Of a stretch of 64,000 nt of DNA, positions 19,265-31,963 are shown piece after piece. The notes below the pieces were generated by a model, which saw nothing but the letters and a program-made list of their open reading frames with translations, ran no database searches and was not told the origin of the DNA. This DNA is from Capsulimonadaceae bacterium. Its GTDB lineage: Bacteria > Armatimonadota > Armatimonadia > Armatimonadales > Capsulimonadaceae. Numbering within the stretch: the stretch's first letter is position 1; each line of letters opens with the position of its first letter. The stretch spans positions 4,320,001-4,384,000 of the forward strand of contig OZ244065.1 in assembly GCA_965215505.1 (NCBI GenBank). The letters are read 5' to 3'. Both the position numbers and the translations under genes were made by a program.

Positions 19265-19293
19265 TTGACAAGCGGGGAGAGACGTGTTAGAAT
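19265..19293 (+). promoter_or_regulatory. consensus sigma70 promoter of the pil operon
   Basis: TTGACA-17nt-TAGAAT. Confidence 0.8.
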
Positions 19294-19432: not shown

Positions 19433-20986
19433 ATGCCCGCCGGGCCACTGATCGGAATTGATATCGGGTCGCAGCAGATCAAGATCGCCGAGTTGCGCCC
19501 CGGCAAGACCGGGCTGACCGTCACCGCCCTCGGCCTCGGGCCGACTCCGGCCGGCGTCGTCCAGAACAGCATCATCACCGACCCCGCCGCCATGGGGGCC
19601 GCCATCAAGAGCCTCATGCGCGAGAGCGGCATCACCATCAAGCGCGCCGTCGGCTGCATCACCGGCCAGAACGCCGTCGTCATCCGCATCATCGAAGTCC
19701 CGCGTATGACCGACGCCGAGCTGAAAGAAACCATGAAGTGGGAGGTCGAGCGGCACGTCCCGTTCGCGCCCTCCGAGACCGTCCTGGACTACCAGCCGCT
19801 CGTCCCGCGCACGGCTGAGGCCGCCAGTGGCCCCAACATGGAGGTGCTGCTCGCCGTCGCACAGCAGGACGCCGTTTCCAACTACATTGACACCCTGTTC
19901 GCGGCGGGCCTCGACCCCGTCGCCATTGACATCGAGCCGCTGGCGATCTCGCGGGCCATCCTGGACCTCCAGAACGGCGTCCCCGTCGCCCGGCCCCAGG
20001 TGCCGTTCGGTGAGCCGGCCTTCGCCGACGGCCCCGAAGAGACGGTCGCCATCGTCAACATCGGTGCGGCCAACACCGACATCGCCATCTTCCAGGGCGG
20101 CCAGCTCACCTTCCCCCGCTCCCTGCCCCTCGCCGGGGACAGCCTGACGCGCGCCATCGCCGAGGCGATGCAGTACACCATGGAACAGGCCGAGCGCGTC
20201 AAGCGCGACTACGCCGTCGTCCAGCTCGACCGCATGGCCGTTTACACCGGCACCGCCTACGAGGAGGGCTACGAGACGCCGCAGTTCCAGGATGAGGACA
20301 ACTTCAATCTCGGCGACGACAACCCGTTCGACCTCGGCGGGCAGAGCGCCGAATTCGGCAACGCCTTCGGCACCCCCTTCGGCGGAGCCTCCGATGCGCC
20401 CCTCGGCGGCACCGCCTTCGGCGGCGGTCCTGCCTTCGACGACCAGGAGCGGACTCAGCCCATCGAGCGGCGCACGCTCAATCTCGCCCGGCCCGCGACC
20501 TCCGACGCGCCCCCCGCCTTCATGCCGCCCACCGACGATGCCGGGTTTGGGATGGCGGGTGCGGGCGGCGGCCCGGACGAGTCCAAGCTGCGTGACGACA
20601 TCTTCGAAGCCATCGCGCCCGTCCTGGGCGAGCTGGCCTCCGAGATCCGGCGCTCCTTCGACTACTACCGCAGCCGGGGCGCGCAGGTGTCCATTGACCG
20701 TGTGCTGCTGACCGGCGGCAGTGCTGGCCTGGCGAACCTCGCCGCCTTCCTCCAGAACGAGCTGCAAGCGCCGGTCGCCGTCGCCAGCGCGCTCACCGCC
20801 CTCCCGGTCACGTCCAAGCACTTCGACCCGTCCTACCTGCCGACCATCGGACCCGCCTTCACCATCGCCGTCGGCCTGGCCGCGCGGGACGTCGTCTTCG
20901 GCGCGAACCCGATGCCCAAGAAGCCCAAGCCGGTCAAGGCGGCCAAAGTGGCTGCCGGATCGGTCACGGCCCCCCCGGCTTCCTAA
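19433..20986 (+). CDS. pilM: type IV pilus assembly protein PilM
   Basis: IGIDIGSQQIKIAEL, WEVERHVPF..LDYQ, VNIGA..T, EIRRSFDYY, LTGGSA, IAVGLAAR; contains an acidic insertion. Confidence 0.93.
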   Translation: MPAGPLIGIDIGSQQIKIAELRPGKTGLTVTALGLGPTPAGVVQNSIITDPAAMGAAIKSLMRESGITIKRAVGCITGQNAVVIRIIEVPRMTDAELKETMKWEVERHVPFAPSETVLDYQPLVPRTAEAASGPNMEVLLAVAQQDAVSNYIDTLFAAGLDPVAIDIEPLAISRAILDLQNGVPVARPQVPFGEPAFADGPEETVAIVNIGAANTDIAIFQGGQLTFPRSLPLAGDSLTRAIAEAMQYTMEQAERVKRDYAVVQLDRMAVYTGTAYEEGYETPQFQDEDNFNLGDDNPFDLGGQSAEFGNAFGTPFGGASDAPLGGTAFGGGPAFDDQERTQPIERRTLNLARPATSDAPPAFMPPTDDAGFGMAGAGGGPDESKLRDDIFEAIAPVLGELASEIRRSFDYYRSRGAQVSIDRVLLTGGSAGLANLAAFLQNELQAPVAVASALTALPVTSKHFDPSYLPTIGPAFTIAVGLAARDVVFGANPMPKKPKPVKAAKVAAGSVTAPPAS

Positions 20987-21049: not shown

Positions 21050-22204
21050 ATGCTCCGAATCAACCTGCTGCCCCCCTATGTGACGCAGAGGCGTCTTACC
21101 AAGCGCCTCATACCGGTGTTCGCCCTGCTGCTGCTGGCGTGCATCGCTCTGCCCCTCTTCCTGTATGCCAACATGAAGGCGCACCTGAACGACATAACGC
21201 AGCAGGCGGAGGCGGACGAGACGGCCAAGGCCGCCAATGACGCCCTGGATGCCCAAGCCGCCAGCACGACGGCGAAAGTGCAGCCCATCCTGGACAAAGT
21301 GAACTTCGTTGACGGGGTCCACAAGTACAACCGTGACCAGGTCACCACGCTCGTCGCCGTCGCGAACCAAAGCCCCAAGAAGAGCTTCATCTACAGCGGC
21401 ATGGCCCCCGGCGCGGGCTACTCGACCATGACCATCAACGCCTACTCGCCCAGCGTCGAGGAAGCCGGCCGCTACCTCGAGGCGATGTACCAGCAGCCCG
21501 CCTTCACCTCGGTCGCCGTGGACAAGATCCCCGGCTACCCCGACAATGTCCAGCACCGGTGGTATCTCGGCCCGATCAAGCCTCAGTACATGGTGTTCGC
21601 CGACGGCGCTTCGGCGTCCGGCGGCGGTGCCGCCGCCGGCGGCTATCCCGGTGGCGGCGGCGGCGCTGCCACCGCCACGGCGGGCGGCTTCAATGCAGCC
21701 AGCCTCGCTCTGAACGGACCCAACAATATCCCGCCCGGCGTCGGCCCGCCCCCGCCTGAGCTGATCGGCGGCCTCGCCACGGGCGGCGGTGCCGCAAGCG
21801 GCGGCTATCCCGGCAGCGGCGGTGGCGGCGGTTACCCCGGCGGTGGGGGCGGAGCGCAGGCCGGTGGCGGCGGCTACAGCCCGAACTTCCTGCGAATCGC
21901 CCTGGCCGGCGTCAGCCCCTTCGCCACCCCTGACGTGATCGCGCGCATTCTGAGGAACAAGATGCGTCAGGTCCACATGGTGACCATCCCCAAGGGCTTC
22001 AACGTCACCGTGACGGCGGGCATCAACAAGCCTTACGCCCCGCTGACCGCACCGACGCCCCCCGGCGGCGGACCGGCGGCGGGCGGTGCGCCGGGCGGCT
22101 TCGGCGGCGGTGCAGGCGCTTACCCCGGCGGCGGCGGTGCGCCCGGCGGCTACCCCGGTGGGGGTGCCCCCGGCGGCTATCCCGGAGGCGCGGCGTCAGG
22201 CTGA
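21050..22204 (+). CDS. pilN: PilN-like alignment subunit with GGYPGG tracts
   Basis: N-terminal RINLLP motif plus TM plus coiled coil, directly after pilM. Confidence 0.85.
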   Translation: MLRINLLPPYVTQRRLTKRLIPVFALLLLACIALPLFLYANMKAHLNDITQQAEADETAKAANDALDAQAASTTAKVQPILDKVNFVDGVHKYNRDQVTTLVAVANQSPKKSFIYSGMAPGAGYSTMTINAYSPSVEEAGRYLEAMYQQPAFTSVAVDKIPGYPDNVQHRWYLGPIKPQYMVFADGASASGGGAAAGGYPGGGGGAATATAGGFNAASLALNGPNNIPPGVGPPPPELIGGLATGGGAASGGYPGSGGGGGYPGGGGGAQAGGGGYSPNFLRIALAGVSPFATPDVIARILRNKMRQVHMVTIPKGFNVTVTAGINKPYAPLTAPTPPGGGPAAGGAPGGFGGGAGAYPGGGGAPGGYPGGGAPGGYPGGAASG

Positions 22205-22220: not shown

Positions 22221-23054
22221 ATGAAAACAGCGCGCCTCAGTCCCGTCGTCGTCGCCGCCGTCGGCACTGTACTATCCCTCCTGGCGATCGCCCTGATCTT
22301 CTTCCTGATGATCAAGCCGACGCAGGACGACACCGTGACCCAGCAGGCACGTCTTGACGCCGCCGCCCCCGGCACCGACCCGGAAGATCGGGAAGCAGGG
22401 CTTGCCCGGAACAAGAAGACGGCCCAGGCCAAACTCGCCCAGGCCAAGGTCAATGTGCAGAAAACGCAGATGCAGTGGGCACAGGTCGAAGCCGCAATCA
22501 TGCCTCCGTTCGACGTGAGCAACCGCCGCAAAGCGTTCCGGCAGCTCACCTATGAGCTGACGCACAACCTCGCGCCCGATCTACAGAAGCAGCTCACGGC
22601 CGGGGGCGTCACCTCGTCCACGAGGTTCGCACTGCCGCCGCCGCCCACCAGTCCGAACGACCCGATGATCCGGCCCGGCGTGATCGAGATCCCGCTCGGC
22701 ACGGTCACCGTCAACGGCGACTTCCGGCACATCCTGGCGAACTTCAACGACTGGCAGTATTTCAACCGCCTGGTCAAAGTAGACGGCCTGACCTTGACGG
22801 GCAACAGCCCGTACATGCAGGGGAGCTACACCGCGACGCTGTACATCTTCCCACAGGGTGACACCAATCCCGAGCCGCCCCTCGCCAAAGCGGGCGGGGC
22901 CGGCGGAGCCGGCGCACCCGGTGGCGGCGGCAGCTATCCCGGCGGCGGCGGCGGCGGCAGCTATCCCGGCGGCGGAGGCCCCCCCCCCGGTGCTGGAGGC
23001 CCTGGCGGCTACCCCGGCGGCGGTGGCCCCGGAGCCTACCCCGGCGGCCACTGA
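22221..23054 (+). CDS. pilO: PilO-like subunit with C-terminal YPGG tract
   Basis: TM plus coiled coil; IEIPLGTVTVNGDFRHILANF..FNRLVKVDGLTL PilO/GspM-like; AAGGAG RBS. Confidence 0.8.
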   Translation: MKTARLSPVVVAAVGTVLSLLAIALIFFLMIKPTQDDTVTQQARLDAAAPGTDPEDREAGLARNKKTAQAKLAQAKVNVQKTQMQWAQVEAAIMPPFDVSNRRKAFRQLTYELTHNLAPDLQKQLTAGGVTSSTRFALPPPPTSPNDPMIRPGVIEIPLGTVTVNGDFRHILANFNDWQYFNRLVKVDGLTLTGNSPYMQGSYTATLYIFPQGDTNPEPPLAKAGGAGGAGAPGGGGSYPGGGGGGSYPGGGGPPPGAGGPGGYPGGGGPGAYPGGH

Positions 23055-23174: not shown

Positions 23175-24191
23175 ATGGACTGGTTCAAAGATAAGAAAAA
23201 CCTGCCGATCGTGGTGGCTCTGGCCGTCGTCGTGTTCCTGGGGGCGGGCGGCCTGATCGCCATGGAACTCGGCCTGTTCAACGGCGGCGCGGCGACGCCC
23301 ACGGCCTCCGCCCCGCCCAGCGGCGCGGGCTATCCGGGTGGTCCTGCCGCCGCCCCCGGTCCTGCCGCCTCTCTCGGTGCGGGTGGCTACCCAGGTGCGC
23401 GCCCGGCGGGCCGTCCCACCCGTGGCGCGGCAGCCGCCGCCGCAAAGGCGTCCCGTCCGGCCACCCCCGGCGCGGTGGTCACCGCCGTGAAGGGGCCTGT
23501 CAACCCGATGACCAGCGCGGACCCGTTCGCCCTCCCCGGCCCGCACAAGGCCGTCGCTTCGGCTGGTGGCCCGAACGTCGCCGGCATGCGGCCCCCCCTG
23601 CGGGACACCCTGCCGCCCCTCAACCTGTTCACGCTGCGCCCGCCGACCCCGCAGGTTGCGAGCAGCCTGACCCTCCCCAATGGGGGGGACGAGACGCTGG
23701 CCGGGACCCGCGTTTCCGGCATCGTGACCGCCGCCGACGGCATCTTCGCCGTACTTGACGTCAATGGAAGCTCACAGACCGTCAAGCCGGGTGACTCTCT
23801 GCCCGGCGGCAGCAAAGTCGCCTCGATTCAGTCCACCGGCGTTACCCTGCACACGCCCGAGGGGAACACGATTACCGTGCCCCTGTCTAACGGTCCGCCC
23901 CAGCAGAACCCGCAGCCCGGTTACGGCGGCGGCTTCGGGGGCGGCGGCTATGGCGGTGGATATCCCGGTGCCGGCGGCTATGGTGGCGGGTATCCGGGTG
24001 CCGGCGGCTTCGGCGGTGGTGGCGGCTACCCCGGTGGTGGCGGCTTCGGCGGCGGCGGGTATCCGGGTGCCGGCGGCTTCGGCGGCGGCGGTGGCTTCGG
24101 CGGCGGTGGCGGCTACCCCGGTGGTGGCGGCTTCGGCGGCGGTGGCGGCGGTTACCCCGGCGGCGGTGGGGGAGCGGGTGCGCCCGAGTAG
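23175..24191 (+). CDS. PilP/GspC-like membrane-anchored subunit with long Gly-rich tail
   Basis: N-terminal TM, DPF motif, RVSGIV..FAVLDVNGSSQTVKPGDSLPGGSKVASIQSTGVTL (HR/PilP-like beta domain). Confidence 0.7.
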   Translation: MDWFKDKKNLPIVVALAVVVFLGAGGLIAMELGLFNGGAATPTASAPPSGAGYPGGPAAAPGPAASLGAGGYPGARPAGRPTRGAAAAAAKASRPATPGAVVTAVKGPVNPMTSADPFALPGPHKAVASAGGPNVAGMRPPLRDTLPPLNLFTLRPPTPQVASSLTLPNGGDETLAGTRVSGIVTAADGIFAVLDVNGSSQTVKPGDSLPGGSKVASIQSTGVTLHTPEGNTITVPLSNGPPQQNPQPGYGGGFGGGGYGGGYPGAGGYGGGYPGAGGFGGGGGYPGGGGFGGGGYPGAGGFGGGGGFGGGGGYPGGGGFGGGGGGYPGGGGGAGAPE

Positions 24192-24204: not shown

Positions 24205-24957
24205 ATGAACAGGTCTATTTTCTCTCTCCTCGTTCCCGTCCTTCTGGCTGGGGGCGGCCTGGCGGCACGGGCACAGACCGGGGCAGATTCCAAGCCGGTC
24301 ACGCTCAACGTCTCGCAGGTCCCCATACAGACGGTCCTGAAGACGCTTTTCAACGGCGCTGGCGTCCGCAGCTTCGTGATAGACGCGGACGTCCCGCGCA
24401 CGGCACTCGTCGGCTCGATCAGCCTGAGCGGCGTTCCGTTCTCGGTCGCGCTCAAGCAGGTCCTGGGGGCGGTCAGCCCGCCCTTGGTCGCCGAACTCCA
24501 GGACGGCATTTACCACGTCCGAACTAGTGCGTCCGCGCCGCCGGACTTTGGGCCGCAGGCTGGTTTTCCCCCGGCCGATGCCGGACAGAACAACATCTAC
24601 AAGATTCGCATCAGGCACTATGATGCGGGCATGATTGCGGACGCCCTGACCCGCCGCGGAGGCATCATCCAGCTGCCGCCGAACTTCGTCATTCCGTCGA
24701 GCGCGAGCGTGGCGGGTGGGCCGACCGGCCCGAACATAACGACGGTGGGCGCGGCGGCCGGCCAGCCCCCGGCGGCTCCAAACGGCGGCGGGCTTCAGAA
24801 CGGCACGGCGACCGGCGCGAACGTCCTGCCGCCCGGCGTCAAGCGCATCTTCATCCTCGCGAGTGACAACTCTCTGGTGGTCGAGGCCACCGCCCAGGGC
24901 TACGAAAACCTGACCGACGAGCGCCTGCTCTCCGGCGGGTACACGCCAGTCTATTAA
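24205..24957 (+). CDS. secretin N-domain paralog without beta-barrel (STN/N0-like plus N3-like)
   Basis: Signal peptide; KPVTLNVSQVPIQTVLKTLF; LPPGVKRIFILASDNSLVVEATAQGYENL aligns with PilQ LPDGVTRIFALQSNNSLLVQATVDGYNTV. Confidence 0.75.
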   Translation: MNRSIFSLLVPVLLAGGGLAARAQTGADSKPVTLNVSQVPIQTVLKTLFNGAGVRSFVIDADVPRTALVGSISLSGVPFSVALKQVLGAVSPPLVAELQDGIYHVRTSASAPPDFGPQAGFPPADAGQNNIYKIRIRHYDAGMIADALTRRGGIIQLPPNFVIPSSASVAGGPTGPNITTVGAAAGQPPAAPNGGGLQNGTATGANVLPPGVKRIFILASDNSLVVEATAQGYENLTDERLLSGGYTPVY

Positions 24958-25000
24958 AGGCTCTCTTCGACGGCTTTATCGAAAGAAAAAGGAAAAACCC

Positions 25001-25816
25001 ATGAAAATCCGATACACGCGACGTCATGCGGCCCTCGCCCTTGGTGCCCTGGCCCTGCTCGGCGGCTCGGTCGTGGCCACCCCCGCACGGGCGCAGGACG
25101 CCAGCGCGGCGTCCGACAAGCCCATCACGCTGAACCTCCAGAACGTCCCCATCCAGACCGCCCTGAAGCTGCTGTTCAACGCTGCGGGCATCCACAACTA
25201 CACCATCGCTTCGGACGTACAGGGGACCGCCAACATTAACAGCGCCAATGTTCCCTTTACGATCGCCCTGACTAACCTGCTGAACTCGGTCGGCGCGGCC
25301 TTCACCGTCGAGAACGGCAGCTACAACGTCGCCATCAAGCGGCCCACGCCGGCACCCCCCGTGGTCGTCACCCCGCAGCCGAACGGGAACACGATCGTGG
25401 GCGGCAGCCAGGACTCGACGGCCAGCACGGCGGATCAGCCCAAGCGCTTCTACCCGATTCCGGTCAACAAGTACGACGCCTACTACCTTGCCCTCCTGCT
25501 CGGCTCGCAGGGCCTCGTCCGCGTTGACGTCAACGGCATCCTGCCCTCCCAGTTCAGCCAGGCCACCGGGCAGGGCCAGGGCGGTCAGGGCGGCCCCGCC
25601 GGCGGCATCACCTCGGTCGGTGGCCAGGGCGGTCGCGGCGGCGGCTTCGGCGGCGGTGGCGGCTACGGCGGTGGCGGCGGCGGCTTCGGCAGCGGCGGCG
25701 GTGCCCGCGGCAGCGTCGGCGGCGGCGGCGGCGGCTTCGGCGGCTTTGCCATCATCAACCCCGCCGGTTCGCAGAACACAAGCCCGCAGGGCACGCCCCC
25801 CCAGGGCACGAACTAA
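25001..25816 (+). CDS. second STN/N0-like secretin N-domain paralog with Gly-rich tail
   Basis: Signal peptide; KPITLNLQNVPIQTALKLLF is paralogous to the preceding gene; FYPIPVNKYDAYYLALLL resembles the N3 start. Confidence 0.72.
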   Translation: MKIRYTRRHAALALGALALLGGSVVATPARAQDASAASDKPITLNLQNVPIQTALKLLFNAAGIHNYTIASDVQGTANINSANVPFTIALTNLLNSVGAAFTVENGSYNVAIKRPTPAPPVVVTPQPNGNTIVGGSQDSTASTADQPKRFYPIPVNKYDAYYLALLLGSQGLVRVDVNGILPSQFSQATGQGQGGQGGPAGGITSVGGQGGRGGGFGGGGGYGGGGGGFGSGGGARGSVGGGGGGFGGFAIINPAGSQNTSPQGTPPQGTN

Positions 25817-26006
25817 TCGGACCCCGGTCCCCCCACCCGTCTTGGCGGGGGGACCCTACCAATCATTTAATCAGGCCCGCGTTGCGCGGCGACGACGAAG
25901 CGCTCCATTCTGCACTCATCTCCCTGTCTGACCCCCCACTCAAGTCGGGGCAACCGACTTCTCGCGACTTCGCAACGCTTCCATTTTCCGTTCAGGAGGA
26001 CATCTC

Positions 26007-27941
26007 ATGGGTTTATATCGAAGACGATCGGGCTTAACCGCCGCGTGCGGCCTGCTGGCTCTGGCGGGGCTGGCGTCCGCCGCCGCCCCGGCCCGGAGCG
26101 CCGAGGACGCCCCCCCCACGGCGAACGGCCGTGGGATCAGCATGGACGTGGCCGGTGCCGACATGCACACAGTCGTCCACATGCTGGAGCAGCAGGCCCA
26201 TGTGGATGCCCTCGTCCATGATGGCGACAAGCCGTTCAAGCCCATCAATCTCCATCTGGATGAGGCGTCCCTGCCGAAAGCGCTGAGGACCATCGCGGCC
26301 AGTGCGGGCGCGAAAGTCAGCAAGAATGAGGACGGGGTCTACGTCTTCGAGCCTCTCACCGCCGACAGTCCGGCCGCCCCGGCAAGCCCTGCACCCGCCG
26401 TCCAGGCCCCCGCCGCGCCGCAGCAACCCGCCGACAACCGCCCCGAGGCGCGCTACCCGTCTGGGTCGCTGCACTGGCAGTCCATCGTCCTCCAGCATGC
26501 CGTCCCGAATGACATCCTGAGGATCATGCACTGGGACCAGGACCTCGTCGAACTCGACCCCTTCAAGCCCGTCGAGGCCCCCCAGCAGCGCCCCAACGTG
26601 TCCTCATTCGGCGCGAACACGATTCTCCCGTCCAGCCTCGCCGGTCTCGGCGGCAACGGCTTCCCGAACAACAACTACAATAACGGCGGCTACCAGAACG
26701 GTGGCTATAACAACGGCGGCTACCAGAATGGCGGCAACCCGTCCGTGCCGCTCGGCACCGGCAATGGTGGTCCCGCCGGCGCGAACTACGCGAACTCCGC
26801 CCACCGCAGCGCTGAACCCGGCTCCCCCGGCCAGGCCAACCAGTTCCCCGGCGGCGGCTTCGGCGGCGGCTTCGGCGGCGGCCAGTTCGGGGGTGGCGGC
26901 GGCCAGTTCGGCGGCGGCGGCCAGTTCGGGGGTGGCGGCGGCCAGTTCGGCGGCGGCGGTCAGTTCGGCGGCGGCGGTCAGTTCGGGGGTGGCGGCGGCC
27001 AGTTCGGCGGCGGCCAGTTCGGCGGCCAGGGTGGGCCGGGCGGGGCGGGCGGACGGGCCCAGCTTCCCGACGGTGTGACGCGCATCTTCGCCCTGCAAAG
27101 CAACAACTCCCTGCTGGTCCAGGCGACCGTGGATGGATACAACACGGTCAAAAACCTGGTCCGCATCCTCGACATCGCCCCGCGCCAGGTCCAGATCAAG
27201 GTCGAGTTCGTCACCGCCAGCGTCGTGGACGTGGATAACCTCGGCGTCAACTTCGACCTCGTGCCCTATCCGGGTCTGGAACTCGCCACGAACCAGGGCA
27301 GCAGCGCCATCAGCACGACGGCCGCGCCGACCTTCCTGCAATACGCCACCGGCAACATCGTCGCCCAGCTTTTCCAGACGCTCACCCGCACGCGCGGCAA
27401 GGTGGTCCAGGCGCCGATCATCACGACGACGAACAACGTGGCGGCCAGCATCAACGTGTTCACCCAGATCCCGTTCTTCACCTCCTCCAGCGTGGTCACG
27501 GGCGGTCTGAACAACAACACGGTTAACAACACGCAGGCCAACTTCATCACCCTCAACACGGGCCTGACGATTGCGCCGCGCATCAACAGCGACGACTCGG
27601 TCACGATGAACCTCTCGCCGACGATCACTGACGTCACCGGCCAGCCCGCCGTCGGCGGCATCCCGCCGACCGTCACCCAGAGCATCACCACCCTCCGCAC
27701 CGTCCGCAGCGGCGACACCATGGTCCTCGGCGGCCTGGTCCGCAAGCAGGAAACGACCTCGACCCAGCGCATCCCGATCCTCGCCGACATCCCGGTCTTG
27801 GGCGGCATCTTCCGCACCCGCAACAAGCAGATCAACGACACCGAGCTGCTGATCTTCGTCACGCCGACCATCATCGGCGACAGCAACGACAGCGCGACCG
27901 CCAATGCCAACGGCGGCCAGAGCGTTACCGTCACGCCGTAA
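26007..27941 (+). CDS. pilQ: outer-membrane secretin (PilQ/GspD family)
   Basis: LDIAPRQVQIKVEFV, APIITTTNN..A.I, GLTIAPRIN, VRSGDTMVLGGL, IPILADIPVLGGIFR..ELLIFVTPTII. Confidence 0.93.
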   Translation: MGLYRRRSGLTAACGLLALAGLASAAAPARSAEDAPPTANGRGISMDVAGADMHTVVHMLEQQAHVDALVHDGDKPFKPINLHLDEASLPKALRTIAASAGAKVSKNEDGVYVFEPLTADSPAAPASPAPAVQAPAAPQQPADNRPEARYPSGSLHWQSIVLQHAVPNDILRIMHWDQDLVELDPFKPVEAPQQRPNVSSFGANTILPSSLAGLGGNGFPNNNYNNGGYQNGGYNNGGYQNGGNPSVPLGTGNGGPAGANYANSAHRSAEPGSPGQANQFPGGGFGGGFGGGQFGGGGGQFGGGGQFGGGGGQFGGGGQFGGGGQFGGGGGQFGGGQFGGQGGPGGAGGRAQLPDGVTRIFALQSNNSLLVQATVDGYNTVKNLVRILDIAPRQVQIKVEFVTASVVDVDNLGVNFDLVPYPGLELATNQGSSAISTTAAPTFLQYATGNIVAQLFQTLTRTRGKVVQAPIITTTNNVAASINVFTQIPFFTSSSVVTGGLNNNTVNNTQANFITLNTGLTIAPRINSDDSVTMNLSPTITDVTGQPAVGGIPPTVTQSITTLRTVRSGDTMVLGGLVRKQETTSTQRIPILADIPVLGGIFRTRNKQINDTELLIFVTPTIIGDSNDSATANANGGQSVTVTP

Positions 27942-27959
27942 GGCCGGCGAATAAACGCG

Positions 27960-27991
27960 AGAGGGCGGGGCTTTGCCCCGCCCTCTTTTTT
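27960..27991 (+). terminator. rho-independent terminator of the pil operon
   Basis: AGAGGGCGGGGC-TTT-GCCCCGCCCTCT followed by T-run. Confidence 0.85.
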
Positions 27992-28073
27992 CTGTCCCTA
28001 GGCCGCATCGGGTATAATCACCCCCAGAGTCTCTCATCATCGTTTGGTCCAGTCCTTAGTCCAGGAGTCCACC

Positions 28074-29261
28074 GTGTTCCGATTTCTTACCGCCGGCGAG
28101 TCCCACGGCCCCGCCCTCACCGCCGTCATCGAGGGCGTCCCCGCCGGGCTGCCGGTCCTCGCCGGGCCGATCAACGCCCAGCTCAAGCGCCGCCAGGGCG
28201 GCTACGGGCGCGGCGCGCGCCAGAAGATCGAGTCGGACACAGTCGAGATCCTGTCCGGCGTCCGCTTCGGGCTGGCCCTCGGCAGTCCCCTCACCCTCGT
28301 CGTCCGCAACCGAGACTGGGCCAACTGGACCGTAAAGATGTCCGCCGAACCCCTCCCCGAAGGCCAGGCCCCGCCCCCCATCACCGTCCCGCGCCCCGGC
28401 CACGCCGACTACACCGGCATGATGAAGTATGGCCATGACGACCTGCGGAACACCCTGGAGCGCTCCTCCGCCCGCAACACCGCCACCCTCGTCGCCGTCG
28501 GCGCGGTCGCCCGCGCCCTGCTGGCCGAGTTCGGCGTCTCGGTCGCCTCCCATGTCGTCAACATCGGCGGCGTCCGGGTCAACGCCGACCACATTGATCT
28601 GCGCCAGGTCGCCGCGCTGGCAGAAGACAGCCCCGTCCGTGTCGCCGACCCCGAGGCCGAGGCGCGCATCATCGCCGCCATTGATGAGGCCAAGTACCGG
28701 GGCGACACCCTGGGCGGCACCTTCGAGGTCGTCACGCTGGGCCTCCCCGTCGGGCTAGGCTCCTACTCGCAGTGGGACACGCGCATCGACGGCAAGCTGG
28801 CCCAGGCGCTCATGGCGATCCAGGCCATCAAGGGCGTCGAGATCGGCATCGGCTTCGGGGCCGCCGACGTCCCTGGCTCCCAGGTCCATGATCCCTTCTT
28901 CTATGACGACGCTGAGGGCGGCTCGGACGCCCGCTTCCGGCGCGGCTCCAACAACGCCGGCGGGACGGAGGGCGGTATCACCAACGGCGAACCACTCGTC
29001 ATCCGGGCCGTGATGAAGCCCATCGCCACCCTGATGAAGCAGCTCCCCTCGGTCAACCTCGAAACCAAAGAGGGCGTCCCCGCCTTCGCCGAGCGGTCCG
29101 ACGTCTGCGCCGTCCCCGCCGCCGCGGTCGTCGGCGAGGCGATGGTCGCCCTCGTGCTTGCCCAGGAGATGTGCCTCAAATTCGGCGGCGACAGCCTCGC
29201 CGAGATGCGCGCCAACTACGACGCCTACCAGCACACCGTTTCAGGGCGCATGAGCAAGTAG
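28074..29261 (+). CDS. aroC: chorismate synthase
   Basis: FLTAGESHG, RRQGGYGRG, PRPGHAD, ERSSAR, GDTLGG, NNAGGTEGGITNG, ERSDVC; GTG start after AGGAG. Confidence 0.98.
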   Translation: MFRFLTAGESHGPALTAVIEGVPAGLPVLAGPINAQLKRRQGGYGRGARQKIESDTVEILSGVRFGLALGSPLTLVVRNRDWANWTVKMSAEPLPEGQAPPPITVPRPGHADYTGMMKYGHDDLRNTLERSSARNTATLVAVGAVARALLAEFGVSVASHVVNIGGVRVNADHIDLRQVAALAEDSPVRVADPEAEARIIAAIDEAKYRGDTLGGTFEVVTLGLPVGLGSYSQWDTRIDGKLAQALMAIQAIKGVEIGIGFGAADVPGSQVHDPFFYDDAEGGSDARFRRGSNNAGGTEGGITNGEPLVIRAVMKPIATLMKQLPSVNLETKEGVPAFAERSDVCAVPAAAVVGEAMVALVLAQEMCLKFGGDSLAEMRANYDAYQHTVSGRMSK

Positions 29262-29291
29262 GGGAAACGAAGAGCTGAGAGGAGAACCGAC

Positions 29292-29570
29292 ATGACTGTG
29301 ACGCTGGAACTTTCCCCCGAAACCGAGGCAGACCTGCGCGAGCGTGCGGGAAAGTGCGGCCAGTCCGTTGCCGACTATCTGTTGACCTTGACCGTATTAA
29401 GTCTCTATCGTGACTTATCTTTATCTGAGAGGGAGAGGGACATCGTCAGAGAACGAATAGCAGACCGGCTCGCAGGCGATAAGGGGATGCTGCTAGCGGA
29501 CTACCAATCTGAGGTCGTGGCAAAGCGTGAGGCGCGTAAGCGGCAGCAAGAAGCCGAAACCGCCGCATGA
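29292..29570 (+). CDS. putative antitoxin-like small protein
   Basis: MTVTLELSPETEADLRERA..GQSVADYL ribbon-helix-helix-like N-terminus; resembles 41635 ORF; GAGGAG RBS. Confidence 0.6.
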   Translation: MTVTLELSPETEADLRERAGKCGQSVADYLLTLTVLSLYRDLSLSERERDIVRERIADRLAGDKGMLLADYQSEVVAKREARKRQQEAETAA

Positions 29571-29592
29571 GCGGAGGCATACATCCTTGACT

Positions 29593-30258
29593 ATGCCTGA
29601 CTTCTCGGGCGCGTTCTGGTTCTACGCGCAAGAGGCTCTGCAAACATGGGGCGGTCGTAGCGTCTCCGTTGAAGTCCGCGAGGTGGGCACACTCACTCTG
29701 ACCTCGGGCAAGATCGTTGCCTGTGATGGCCTGATTCCGAGCGACGAGCCGTTCACGCAAACAGTCACCCCTGGCTCCTACCCTGTCGTCTTGTGCCTGG
29801 TCAGCGGCGACAAAGGGTGGCCCATCATTGCCTGTGCCATGCTGCGCTTCAAAGACGAGATGCCGCGCACCTGGAAACTTGCGACGGTCGCCGGTCAGAG
29901 CGAGGTTCCTGACCGGAAGGGTGAGATTGTCGGCTATGGAGTAGACACCGGGGACGGATGCTTCGCTGACCTTGACGCGATGCGGGAGTTGATAAGTCTC
30001 CAGGAGCCATATGAGCGGTTCAGAGACGCGGTGACTAAGTCTCGCTCAGACTGGTTTGACTATAACCTGGACGTTGAACCGCCCACCAACATCATCACCT
30101 TTTCGTCCGGCGAGGGGGACGGGACTTATCCTTCTTATTTCGGCTACGACGCAGATGGCGATGCCCTTTGCCTTGCGACTGACTTTGGCATCATTGCGCC
30201 CCTGCCGGAGACACACACAGAAGCGCCGAGCAAGTATCAACTGAGGCTCGACCTTTGA
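29593..30258 (+). CDS. DUF4241 domain protein
   Basis: LTLTSGKIVACD..PGSYPV..YGVDTGDGCFAD..FSSGEGDGTYPSYFGYDADG..LATDF. Confidence 0.8.
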   Translation: MPDFSGAFWFYAQEALQTWGGRSVSVEVREVGTLTLTSGKIVACDGLIPSDEPFTQTVTPGSYPVVLCLVSGDKGWPIIACAMLRFKDEMPRTWKLATVAGQSEVPDRKGEIVGYGVDTGDGCFADLDAMRELISLQEPYERFRDAVTKSRSDWFDYNLDVEPPTNIITFSSGEGDGTYPSYFGYDADGDALCLATDFGIIAPLPETHTEAPSKYQLRLDL

Positions 30259-30836
30259 CGGTAATACGGAACATAGTCCTCATCGGCTTCATGGGAACGG
30301 GCAAAAGCGCTGTGGGCCGCGTCCTCGCCCGGCGGACGGGCTGGCATCACCTGGACACCGACGCCGAGATCGAAAGGGCGGCGGGCCGGACCATCCCGGA
30401 GATATTCACCGAAGAAGGCGAACCCGCCTTTCGCGCCCGCGAGGCCCTTCTCCTCTCCTCTCTGGCTCCCCCAGAATTAGGTTTTAGTGGGGTGGGGGCG
30501 GGGGGGGCCTCTCTCATCCTCTCCACCGGCGGCGGGACGCCCCTGCGCCCCGAGAACGCCGCCTTGCTGAAACGGATCGGCACCGTCGTCTGGCTCCAGG
30601 TCGCGCCCCCGGCCATCCTCGCCCGCGTCCAGCGCAGCCTGCACGAGCGGCCCCTGCTGGCCGGGCATCGGGACAATCCCTTGGGGCGCATCGAGGCCCT
30701 CCTTGCCGACCGCGCGCCGCGTTATGCCGCCCTGGCCGACTACACCCTGGACACCTCGGACTGCGCGAACTCGGAAGAAGCCGCCGACCGGCTGGGACGC
30801 CTGCTCGCACCCGATTTTGACACATCTCCCTCATGA
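30255..30836 (+). CDS. aroK: shikimate kinase
   Basis: IVLIGFMGTGKS, DTDAEIE, IFTEEGEPAFRARE, STGGG, RPLL. Confidence 0.95.
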   Translation: MTVIRNIVLIGFMGTGKSAVGRVLARRTGWHHLDTDAEIERAAGRTIPEIFTEEGEPAFRAREALLLSSLAPPELGFSGVGAGGASLILSTGGGTPLRPENAALLKRIGTVVWLQVAPPAILARVQRSLHERPLLAGHRDNPLGRIEALLADRAPRYAALADYTLDTSDCANSEEAADRLGRLLAPDFDTSPS

Positions 30837-31963
30837 CAAATACCACACAGACCGTCCGCGTCAGCCTCAGCGACCGCTCCTATGACATCCTGGTCGGGCG
30901 CGGCCTGCTTGCCCGTCTAGGAGAGGAAACCGCCGCCCGCGTGGCGGGCGGCAAGGCGGCGGGCCGGTCGGCCTTCATCCTCAGCAGCGCGGCCATCGCT
31001 AACCGCTACGGCGCGTCCGCCCGCGAAAGCCTGGAAGCGGCGGGGTTCCGGGTCCACACCGCCCTCATCCCCGCCGGGGAGCGGGCCAAGACATTGGCCT
31101 CGGTCAGTCGCCTGTACGCCGCCCTGTATGACCAGGCCGCCGACCGGCGCACCGTCGTCGTCGCATTGGGCGGGGGCGTCATCGGCGACATGGCGGGCTT
31201 CGTCGCCGCCACCTACACGCGCGGTCTGGACTTCGTGCAGGTGCCGACCACCCTGCTCGCCCAGGTGGACAGCAGCGTCGGCGGCAAGACCGGCGTGAAC
31301 TTCGGGTCGGCCCAGAACTCGGCCAAGAACCTGATCGGCGCGTTCCACCAGCCCCGCCTCGTCATTATTGACCCGGACACGCTGGGCACCCTTCCTCTCC
31401 GGGAACGGCGCTCCGGCCTCGCCGAAGTCATCAAATATGGTATAATAGGCGACAAAGATTTCTTTACGCTCCTGGAGCGCGAGTCGGCGGGCCTGCTCGA
31501 CCTCTCTTCGCCCCACCTGGAACACGTCCTGGCCCACTCCTGCGCGCTCAAAGCCCGCGTCGTGGAGCAGGACGAACACGAGGGCGGCCTGCGCGCCATC
31601 CTGAACTTCGGCCACACCGTCGGCCACGCCCTGGAGTCGCTGACGCGCTACCGGGTCTACACGCACGGCGAGGCCATCGCATTAGGCATGGTCTCAGCTT
31701 CGCTGATCGGCGAGGAAGTCGGCGTGACCAAGCCGGACGATACCGCTGCCCTGACCGCCCTCCTGCGCGCCTCGGGCTTCGCCGTCCGCCTGGACCCGGC
31801 GCATTCGGTGGACGAGATCACGCGGCTCCTGGCCTGGGACAAGAAGAGCGTCGGCGGGTCGGCCCGCTTCGTGCTGATGGAGGAGATCGGGCGGGCGACG
31901 CTCGGCCACCGGGTCCCCGAATCCGCCATCCGCCGGGCACTGGAGCGGCAGCGAAGTTTGTAG
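30833..31963 (+). CDS. aroB: 3-dehydroquinate synthase
   Basis: ALGGGVIGDMAGFVAATY.RG, PTTLLAQVDSSVGGKTG, KNLIGAFHQP, LNFGHTVGHALE, HGEA. Confidence 0.98.
   Translation: MTNTTQTVRVSLSDRSYDILVGRGLLARLGEETAARVAGGKAAGRSAFILSSAAIANRYGASARESLEAAGFRVHTALIPAGERAKTLASVSRLYAALYDQAADRRTVVVALGGGVIGDMAGFVAATYTRGLDFVQVPTTLLAQVDSSVGGKTGVNFGSAQNSAKNLIGAFHQPRLVIIDPDTLGTLPLRERRSGLAEVIKYGIIGDKDFFTLLERESAGLLDLSSPHLEHVLAHSCALKARVVEQDEHEGGLRAILNFGHTVGHALESLTRYRVYTHGEAIALGMVSASLIGEEVGVTKPDDTAALTALLRASGFAVRLDPAHSVDEITRLLAWDKKSVGGSARFVLMEEIGRATLGHRVPESAIRRALERQRSL

Follow-up and report, generated by a model that had tools for sequence, protein, structure and literature searches.

Two barrel-less paralogues of the PilQ N-terminal region encoded between pilP and pilQ in a type IVa pilus operon of Armatimonadota

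The type IVa pilus (T4aP) operon of a Capsulimonadaceae bacterium (Armatimonadota) encodes two small proteins, here called A and B, between its pilP-like gene and pilQ. The window analysed is the whole stretch of 64,000 nucleotides taken from contig OZ244065.1 (assembly GCA_965215505.1, positions 4,320,001 to 4,384,000 of the forward strand), and coordinates refer to this window (Table 1). Both are exported periplasmic proteins paralogous to the N-terminal region that the T4aP secretin PilQ has in the periplasm; a partial duplication affecting the 5′ part of pilQ gave rise to them.

A reading made earlier from the letters of the window and their translations (the sequence-only reading) had described A and B as barrel-less secretin N-domain proteins, and both open reading frames (ORFs) were found (24205-24957 and 25001-25816) with the features attributed to them. 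The two proteins are paralogous, with 56 of 164 aligned residues identical (34%, E 5e-18) in an alignment that takes in their similar starts, KPVTLNVSQVPIQTVLKTLF and KPITLNLQNVPIQTALKLLF. Each begins with a predicted signal peptide, read from the sequence as a basic n-region, a hydrophobic core and an ARAQ end, and has no cysteine at or after the predicted ARA-Q cleavage site, that is, no lipobox. PilQ of the window consists of a signal peptide, its own N0 domain (residues 44-117), a linker, a first N3 half (155-190), an insertion of about 165 residues rich in Asn, Gly, Gln and Phe, a second N3 half (353-395) and the barrel. A runs through the same series of signal peptide, N0, linker and first N3 half, then has a 42-residue loop and a second N3 half, and ends. 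B shares the series as far as the first N3 half (residues 149-185) and ends in a tail of about 46% glycine. The split N3 of A matches that of PilQ as had been claimed: the first half was aligned to PilQ 155-181 by hhalign, and residues 208-238 are 55% identical to PilQ 353-383 (17/31, E 2e-07), a stretch that falls in PilQ's own Secretin_N match (336-394, E 4.8e-05). A stops where the barrel would start, 12 residues past this match and equivalent to PilQ position ~395, at which PilQ goes on APRQVQIKVEF. No match to the secretin barrel family PF00263 was obtained in A or B at E ≤ 1, compared with E 2.8e-37 for the neighbouring PilQ. In all 44 aligned members of the B family the half N3 consists of the first strand-helix(-strand) followed by the glycine-rich tail, and neither this family alignment nor profile comparisons contained a complete Secretin_N domain in B. 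In outline, B looks like a PilQ cut within the glycine-rich loop that splits N3, and A like a PilQ cut at the border between N3 and barrel. Recent gene conversion between A and pilQ was considered as a cause of their similar second N3 halves and rejected: nucleotide identity is 59%, third positions agree in 19 of 36 codons and the same codon is used for 8 of the 17 identical residues.

Homology to PilQ becomes evident when families are compared. Against an alignment of 48 sequences (PilQ of the window and its orthologues), hhalign placed the A family (31 sequences) with a probability of 98.9% and E 2.4e-17, pairing A 5-155 with PilQ 13-181, and the B family (44 sequences) with a probability of 99.4% and E 1.6e-21, pairing B 13-176 with PilQ 12-184. 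Both alignments are colinear, running from the signal peptide through N0 and linker into N3, of which they take in the first strand and helix. For B, a BLASTP comparison with PilQ without profiles gave nothing (best E 32); this homology is visible at the profile level only. Among structures in the Protein Data Bank the B profile matched N0 of Neisseria meningitidis PilQ (4AR0, E 7.3e-10), ran colinearly from N0 into the first strand-helix of N1/N3 in Vibrio cholerae PilQ (6W6M 154-282) and Pseudomonas aeruginosa PilQ (6VE2 286-406), and also followed HofQ (2Y3M 7-138, E 1.5e-4); the A-family profile had a single match, 4AR0 (E 0.0056). For the N0/STN domain (PF07660, PF21305), the Pfam STN model scored 18.9 and 17.1 bits on A and B of the window, below its curated cut-off of 28.4; with a threshold of E ≤ 1 it matched 29 of the 31 sequences in the A family (best E 1.3e-07), and precomputed PF07660 assignments are present on many homologues of both proteins.

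The predicted structure of A agrees with this assignment for its N-terminal domain. An AlphaFold model computed from the 31-sequence alignment has a mean predicted local distance difference test score (pLDDT) of 52, with residues 30-110 at 80-90. In structural comparison by VIA this N0 model matched EscC N0 (3GR5; Z 10.9, root-mean-square deviation [rmsd] 2.7, 84 residues aligned), N. meningitidis PilQ (4AR0, Z 10.4, rmsd 6.0, 88 aligned; 4AV2, Z 10.1, rmsd 2.2, 79 aligned, 24% identity) and the N0 domains of Myxococcus xanthus PilQ and GspD (Z 8.1-8.2), and it also matched the wider N0 fold family, namely DotD, the signalling domains of FecA and PupR, and phage baseplate hubs. The best Foldseek match was 4AV2 (E 3.1e-4). 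That A carries an N0 fold is therefore well supported by modelling. A natural homologue consisting of N3 only (P0055, 136 residues) was modelled on a 45-sequence alignment, which drops the long loop without editing any sequence. Like the C-terminal half of A, it was drawn as strand-helix-[loop]-strand-strand-helix, with the strand-strand-helix half at pLDDT 83-90, and its best four VIA rows were the N3 domains of GspD, XcpQ, V. cholerae PilQ and ExeD (Z 4.8-5.0, two of the four at 24-25% identity); a predicted N3 fold in A is supported more weakly than its N0. The match to secretin N-domains that the sequence-only reading had proposed looking for was found by profile and, for the N0 of A, by fold.

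Both genes are maintained by purifying selection. At E ≤ 0.001 there are 36 homologues of A, itself included, most of them 240-275 residues long and with identity down to 43%, and 111 homologues of B with conserved length; all are unnamed or annotated as hypothetical. An exhaustive search of representative proteins returned 199 at the same threshold, and the full-length matches were all small proteins. Three long multi-stretch matches from this search (P0093, P0108, P0146) are cadherin/Big_9 repeat proteins and were discarded as spurious. In the family alignments the domain cores are conserved and the loops variable. The ratio of nonsynonymous to synonymous substitution rates (dN/dS) was computed against the orthologues in loci L001 and L002, at dS values of 0.6-1.0 that are near saturation. 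For A it is 0.28 overall, with 0.19-0.38 in N0, 0.22-0.29 in the first N3 half, 0.07-0.08 in the second N3 half and 0.4-0.7 in the loops; for B it is 0.29-0.36. Frame breaks in one related locus (L007) hit pilM and pilQ as well and are for that reason read as assembly noise.

Seven related loci were recovered from species-representative genomes with peptide patterns derived from A, and therefore contain A by construction. They come from metagenome-assembled genomes (MAGs) labelled Armatimonadota, one of them Capsulimonadaceae, and within the reach of each locus all seven keep the order pilM-N-O-P-A-B-pilQ-aroC. Among 151 sampled Armatimonadota genomes an A-family profile matched in 85 (E ≤ 1e-5) and a PilQ orthologue was present in 137 (E ≤ 1e-40). 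Most of the A-profile matches cover only N0 and the first N3 half, in ORFs of 200-340 residues, and are B-type; the profile was not built on B, and divergent B genes may have been missed. A small-ORF match was listed in 82 genomes, and in 52 of them it shares contig and strand with the listed PilQ match and lies less than 2.5 kb 5′ of it (51 found by script, and G101 added by hand because its open frame exceeded the 450-residue filter). In many of the other 30 genomes the small-ORF match stands at a contig end and PilQ at the start of another contig (e.g. G068, G079, G134, G025), which we attribute to assemblies breaking in glycine-rich, GC-rich repeats.

What A and B may do is suggested by the domains they share with PilQ. 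The N1-N3 domains of secretins are ring-building units, and it is the barrel, joined to them covalently, that is believed to set the position of secretin N-domains. The presence of free N0 and N3 copies, kept by selection beside pilP and pilQ, is most simply explained by accessory structural subunits where the PilQ channel meets the alignment complex of PilN/O/P, a reading that we hold tentatively and rate at slightly under an even chance. The N0 domains would be additional copies of the module at which the homology region (HR) domain of PilP/GspC docks. In A the N3 is complete, a domain of the ring-building type; it would pack against or beside the N3 ring of PilQ, and its second half, nearly PilQ-like and with a very low dN/dS, would fit a contact surface shared with that ring. 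The half N3 and glycine-rich tail of B might join the glycine-rich segments of PilN, PilO and PilP and the N3 loop of PilQ, and together A and B would add periplasmic layers or links from separate polypeptides in place of extra N-domains in cis. Docking of the HR domain of GspC/PilP at secretin N0 has been described for type II secretion systems (T2SS) and type IV pili (T4P), in the part of the source available (PMC3169554), and 3OSS, an N0-HR docking structure by its title, is among the structural matches of the A model. Prediction of a complex between PilQ 36-400 and A 25-250, both entered as alignments, gave a score of 0.01 against a mark of 0.32, which speaks neither for nor against binding. 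Ring formation, stacking under PilQ, and an adaptor, plug or assembly role are all putative functions. A bolder form of the structural reading, which we consider rather unlikely, is a modular Armatimonadota secretin: separate N0/N3 chains, B everywhere and A in some lineages, would lengthen the outer-membrane PilQ ring inward, forming hetero-oligomeric periplasmic rings docked on PilP; the half N3 of B would be completed in trans, and the Gly/Phe-rich tails of B, PilN, PilO and PilP, with the N3 loop of PilQ, would make a mesh, disordered and cohesive, that surrounds the conduit or lies within it and is comparable in principle to FG-repeat phases.

Several observations weigh against a structural role. 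PilQ of the window has its own N0 and N3, so that A and B are not needed to supply missing domains. No A-family profile match was found in 66 of the 151 genomes despite PilQ being present in 137, and small ORFs that include a second N3 half, the mark of A-type matches, were seen in just 4 of the 151, each from the genus of the window. A combines N0 and N3 in the window, in loci L001, L002 and L007 and in several metagenomic proteins; in L004, L005 and L006 and in a dozen metagenomic proteins of 103-170 residues it is reduced to a signal peptide and N3. Two genomes of the same genus (G110, G101) have pilP-B-pilQ and lack A altogether. The loss in relatives of either the gene or its N0 argues against A, at least, being an obligatory ring. 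An extra domain in cis was not seen in the PilQ of A-less genomes, and in locus L010 the gap between the matched parts of PilQ is no longer than in the window. These distributions suggest that B is old and phylum-wide and that A is a younger, lineage-restricted, dispensable add-on. The synteny survey called for by the sequence-only reading accordingly bore out a B-type gene 5′ of pilQ across the phylum and found A in a narrow group, and its proposal of barrel-less N-domain modules that extend the conduit stands as to the homology with the N0/N3 region and the missing barrel, while the idea of extra rings is weakened by the losses of A or its N0. The N3 part of A is also the less secure one: Pfam Secretin_N (PF03958) is found in just 3 of the 31 A-family members (best E 0.027), the C-terminal half of the A model has a pLDDT of 30-50, the P0055 model had no Foldseek match at E ≤ 0.001 although its top rows were secretins, and its N3 rows in VIA are tied in Z (~5) with unrelated ferredoxin-like folds. 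The fold comparison that had been proposed thus succeeded for the N0 of A; for N3 it agrees with the assignment without deciding it, and because the N3 fold matches are weak and tied, the assignment of N3 relies mainly on sequence homology to the organism's own PilQ. The half N3 domain of B, for its part, may be unable to fold alone.

Other explanations have to be set beside accessory structural subunits. A and B might be transient assembly factors that bind new PilQ protomers like-with-like, keep them soluble or template their multimerization until barrel insertion, and are absent from the finished machine. We regard this as unlikely, yet it has points in its favour: A and B are homologous to exactly those parts of PilQ that make lateral ring contacts, no gene for a pilotin of the tetratricopeptide repeat (TPR) type was seen within the operon, and relatives can do without A, much as accessory chaperones are often dispensable. 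The missing lipobox cysteine means that neither protein is a classical lipoprotein pilotin (PilF/PilW/Tgl or GspS type), and the strong conservation of B's long glycine-rich tail would be left unexplained. Alternatively, the free domains might act as regulatory decoys or plugs, the free N0 competing with that of PilQ for the HR domain of PilP or N3 capping the PilQ N3 ring, and so tune the number of secretins coupled to an inner-membrane platform or close idle channels. The domain types are those of the PilQ docking region and the presence of A varies among close relatives, as such a role might lead one to expect; constitutive co-transcription in the same operon is a poor fit for a regulator, however, and B is conserved beside pilQ across the phylum, which makes decoys or plugs improbable in our view.

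Two further possibilities would take the proteins away from the structure of the secretin. The extramembranous domains of HofQ reportedly bind DNA, and A and B could be periplasmic DNA receptors for natural transformation in which N0 and a KH-like N1 module bind incoming DNA: in NCBIfam the DNA uptake porin HofQ is among the top rows obtained with A and B (E 1e-4 and 6e-5, well short of the cut-off), and the B profile aligns to HofQ as given above. This likeness is, however, generic to the PilQ family, PilQ N0 entries score better and no competence genes were seen in the immediate neighbourhood, and we give the idea little weight. STN-type signalling domains of the kind found in TonB-dependent transducers and FecR, unrelated to the pilus, would suit the fold matches of A to FecA, FpvA and PupR and the presence of an STN-like domain fused to a BlaR1-M56 protein in the same genome, but not colinear homology to PilQ that includes signal peptide and N3, or a fixed place within the pil operon; the odds of this being the answer are very slim. 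Least credible of all is that A and B are functionless, decaying leftovers of pilQ duplications. Their truncated architecture, and the loss or shortening of A in some relatives, would suit decay. Against it stand intact signal peptides, lengths conserved in the 36 and 111 homologues, dN/dS values of about 0.3, falling to 0.07 where A has its second N3 half, a position 5′ of pilQ kept in 52 of 82 genomes, and the assignment of the L007 frame breaks, shared with pilM and pilQ, to assembly noise. Sporadic and degraded occurrence, named by the sequence-only reading as the mark of decaying duplicates, was not seen.

Barrel-less secretin N-domain proteins are already known as a kind, and the following comparisons draw on those parts of the cited papers that were available. 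RhcC1 (NolW) of the rhizobial type III secretion system (T3SS) is an N-terminal secretin remnant that includes Secretin_N and lacks the barrel, encoded by a separate gene in the cluster of the system (PMC3459982, PMC4500985), and it has been proposed to link SctD and the inner-membrane ring to RhcC2, a foreign, Tad-derived barrel secretin (PMC3459982). Like A and B it is a separate N-terminal secretin piece without a barrel, but it belongs to a T3SS rather than a T4aP, and it supplies N-domains that RhcC2, as described there, lacks, whereas PilQ of the window retains its N0 and its N3, with A and B as additional copies. In the mitochondrial T2SS-derived system of some protists, GspDN1 corresponds to a full N-domain and GspDN2 and GspDN3 to its C- and N-terminal halves, and GspDN1 interacts with GspD in yeast two-hybrid assays (PMC8134430). 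This pairing of full and half domain mirrors A and B. The system is eukaryotic and mitochondrial, and according to the available text its GspD is without an N-terminal region, so that a gene was split and not duplicated; that text describes neither an N0 domain nor a glycine-rich tail.

Free N0-fold domains also occur within other trans-envelope machines. The N0-only VirB7 protein XAC2622 has been proposed to form an additional ring layer in a type IV secretion system (T4SS) (PMC3093366, available in part), and the A N0 model matched DotD (6X62_Dd, Z 8.5) and Xanthomonas VirB7 (6GYB_a, Z 5.7) in VIA. VirB7 and DotD are T4SS lipoproteins and, as far as the source describes them, differ from A and B in having neither an N3 domain nor sequence kinship to a local secretin. 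PilQ and HofQ themselves (4AR0, 4AV2, 6W6M, 6VE2, 2Y3M) have the same domains in the same order as A and B, but the barrel follows covalently, where A and B end before it. RcpC/CpaB has a SAF/beta-clip fold that is unrelated to A and B. In Tad pili this separate periplasmic protein makes a ring conduit under the secretin (PMC12307814); it resembles A and B in the role proposed for them, and differs in that it is not known to be a secretin paralogue. In the ESM Atlas, clusters of small proteins (160-240 residues) with STN and/or Secretin_N occur in other phyla, some auto-named NolW-like; these are leads only. The sequence-only reading knew of no described T4P system with this arrangement. For T4P this still holds, as a system with barrel-less PilQ paralogues beside an intact PilQ was not found described in the literature searched (mostly excluding subscription journals), while the examples from rhizobial T3SS and mitochondrial T2SS narrow the claim. 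What is distinct here is the T4aP operon, the coexistence with a secretin that keeps both domains, and two graded tandem truncations, one of them glycine-tailed.

A and B lie in a region of high GC content (window ~0.65-0.70) in which pilM, the pilN-, pilO- and pilP-like genes, A, B, pilQ, aroC, two small ORFs, aroK and aroB follow one another on the + strand between 19.4 and 32 kb (Table 1). Purine-rich motifs resembling Shine-Dalgarno sequences precede the ATG codons of A (AGAGGA), B (AAGGA) and also pilQ, and a terminator scan of the + strand found no terminator-like site between pilM and pilQ. A and B appear to be co-transcribed with pilMNOP and pilQ. The pilP-like product matches the TIGR03021 pilP_fam model with E 3.6e-07 and 31.2 bits, just under the cut-off of 34.65.

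Table 1. Features of the pil operon and of proteins A and B, in window coordinates (aa, amino acid residues; SP, signal peptide)
Feature	Positions	Strand	Basis or remark
Sigma-70-like promoter site, 5′ of pilM	19265-19293	+	TTGACA-17-TAGAAT, 11/12; consensus match only
pilM	19433-20986	+	PF11104 PilM_2, E 1.3e-50
pilN-like, Gly-rich C-terminal part (aa 222-384)	21050-22204	+	Operon position and conserved synteny; no Pfam match
PilN Gly-rich tract, aa 222-384	21713-22201	+	
pilO-like, Gly-rich tail (aa 207-277)	22221-23054	+	Synteny; no significant Pfam match; start codon chosen by us
PilO Gly-rich tract, aa 207-277	22839-23051	+	
pilP-like: N-terminal transmembrane segment, HR-type domain (~aa 176-240), Gly-rich tail (229-338)	23175-24191	+	TIGR03021
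PilP Gly-rich tract, aa 229-338	23859-24188	+	
Gene A (P0001, 250 aa): SP, N0, split N3, no barrel	24205-24957	+	
A N0/STN domain, aa 29-110	24289-24534	+	pLDDT 80-90; VIA fold matches; STN in 29/31 family members
A N3 first half, aa 129-165 (strand, helix, short strand; HYDAG...PPNFV)	24589-24699	+	Alignment, model, hhalign
A N3 second half, aa 208-238 (LPPGVKRIF..SDNSLVVEAT..)	24826-24918	+	55% identity to PilQ 353-383; strand-strand-helix in models
Gene B (P0002, 271 aa): SP, N0, first N3 half, Gly-rich tail	25001-25816	+	
B N0/STN domain, aa 39-113	25115-25339	+	Family profile vs 4AR0, E 7.3e-10
B half N3, aa 149-185, RFYPIPVNKYDAYYLALLLG...	25445-25555	+	Colinear with first strand and helix of PilQ N1/N3; window PilQ 155-184
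B Gly-rich tract, aa 176-269	25526-25807	+	
B Gly-rich tail, ~46% Gly, GGFGGG-type	25556-25813	+	Composition
pilQ secretin, 644 aa	26007-27941	+	PF00263 E 2.8e-37 at aa 461-623; Secretin_N E 4.8e-05 at 336-394
PilQ Gly-rich tract, aa 260-367	26784-27107	+	
Intrinsic-terminator-like hairpin with T-run, 18 bases 3′ of pilQ	27959-27987	+	13-pair stem, 10 GC

Low-complexity tracts of 33-58% glycine, of the GGFGGG or GGYPGGGG type, occur in all periplasmic components of the operon except A; that of PilQ is an insertion within N3, and PilM, which is cytoplasmic, lacks one. Between B and pilQ, a spacer of 190 bases contains a GC-rich inverted repeat, GGTCCCCCC ... GGGGGGACC (25822-25855), which is not followed by a T-run and was not called by the terminator scan; it may serve in RNA processing, RNA stability or attenuation. 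On the 3′ side of the pil operon, aroC, the two small ORFs, aroK and aroB occupy 28044-31963. In every related locus that reaches that far aroC follows pilQ, and aroK and aroB were also matched in L004-L007.

The same genome contains other secretin-like genes. Besides pilQ it has five more PF00263 matches that exceed the Pfam cut-off, one of these marginally (29.2 bits), which is many for one genome. Two adjacent exported ORFs that this search did not report (locus L009, 1039-1965 and 1979-2827; ~1377538-1379326 of G000:C1) carry PilQ-like pieces in an unusual order, the first placing an N0-like domain C-terminally after a short secretin-like C-domain, the second combining an N3 that has a short loop with a short secretin-like C-domain. 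Elsewhere (locus L008, 1092-3383; ~3970091-3972382 of G000:C1) a 763-residue membrane protein of the BlaR1/M56 peptidase type has a C-terminal STN/N0-like domain, after which a short stretch resembles the start and end of the secretin domain. M56-STN fusions are also found among the distant matches P0130, P0143 and P0173.

Genes such as A and B are easily missed in surveys of pilus systems, as they are annotated as hypothetical only and adjoin glycine-rich repeats in which MAG contigs often end. After the split secretins of the rhizobial T3SS and the mitochondrial T2SS they are the third example, and a bacterial T4P one, which suggests that the N-domain region of secretins is a portable module. 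Free N-domain copies, kept by selection beside an intact secretin, would amount to a natural experiment on the templating of periplasmic rings and on the way a secretin is linked to the PilNOP alignment complex.

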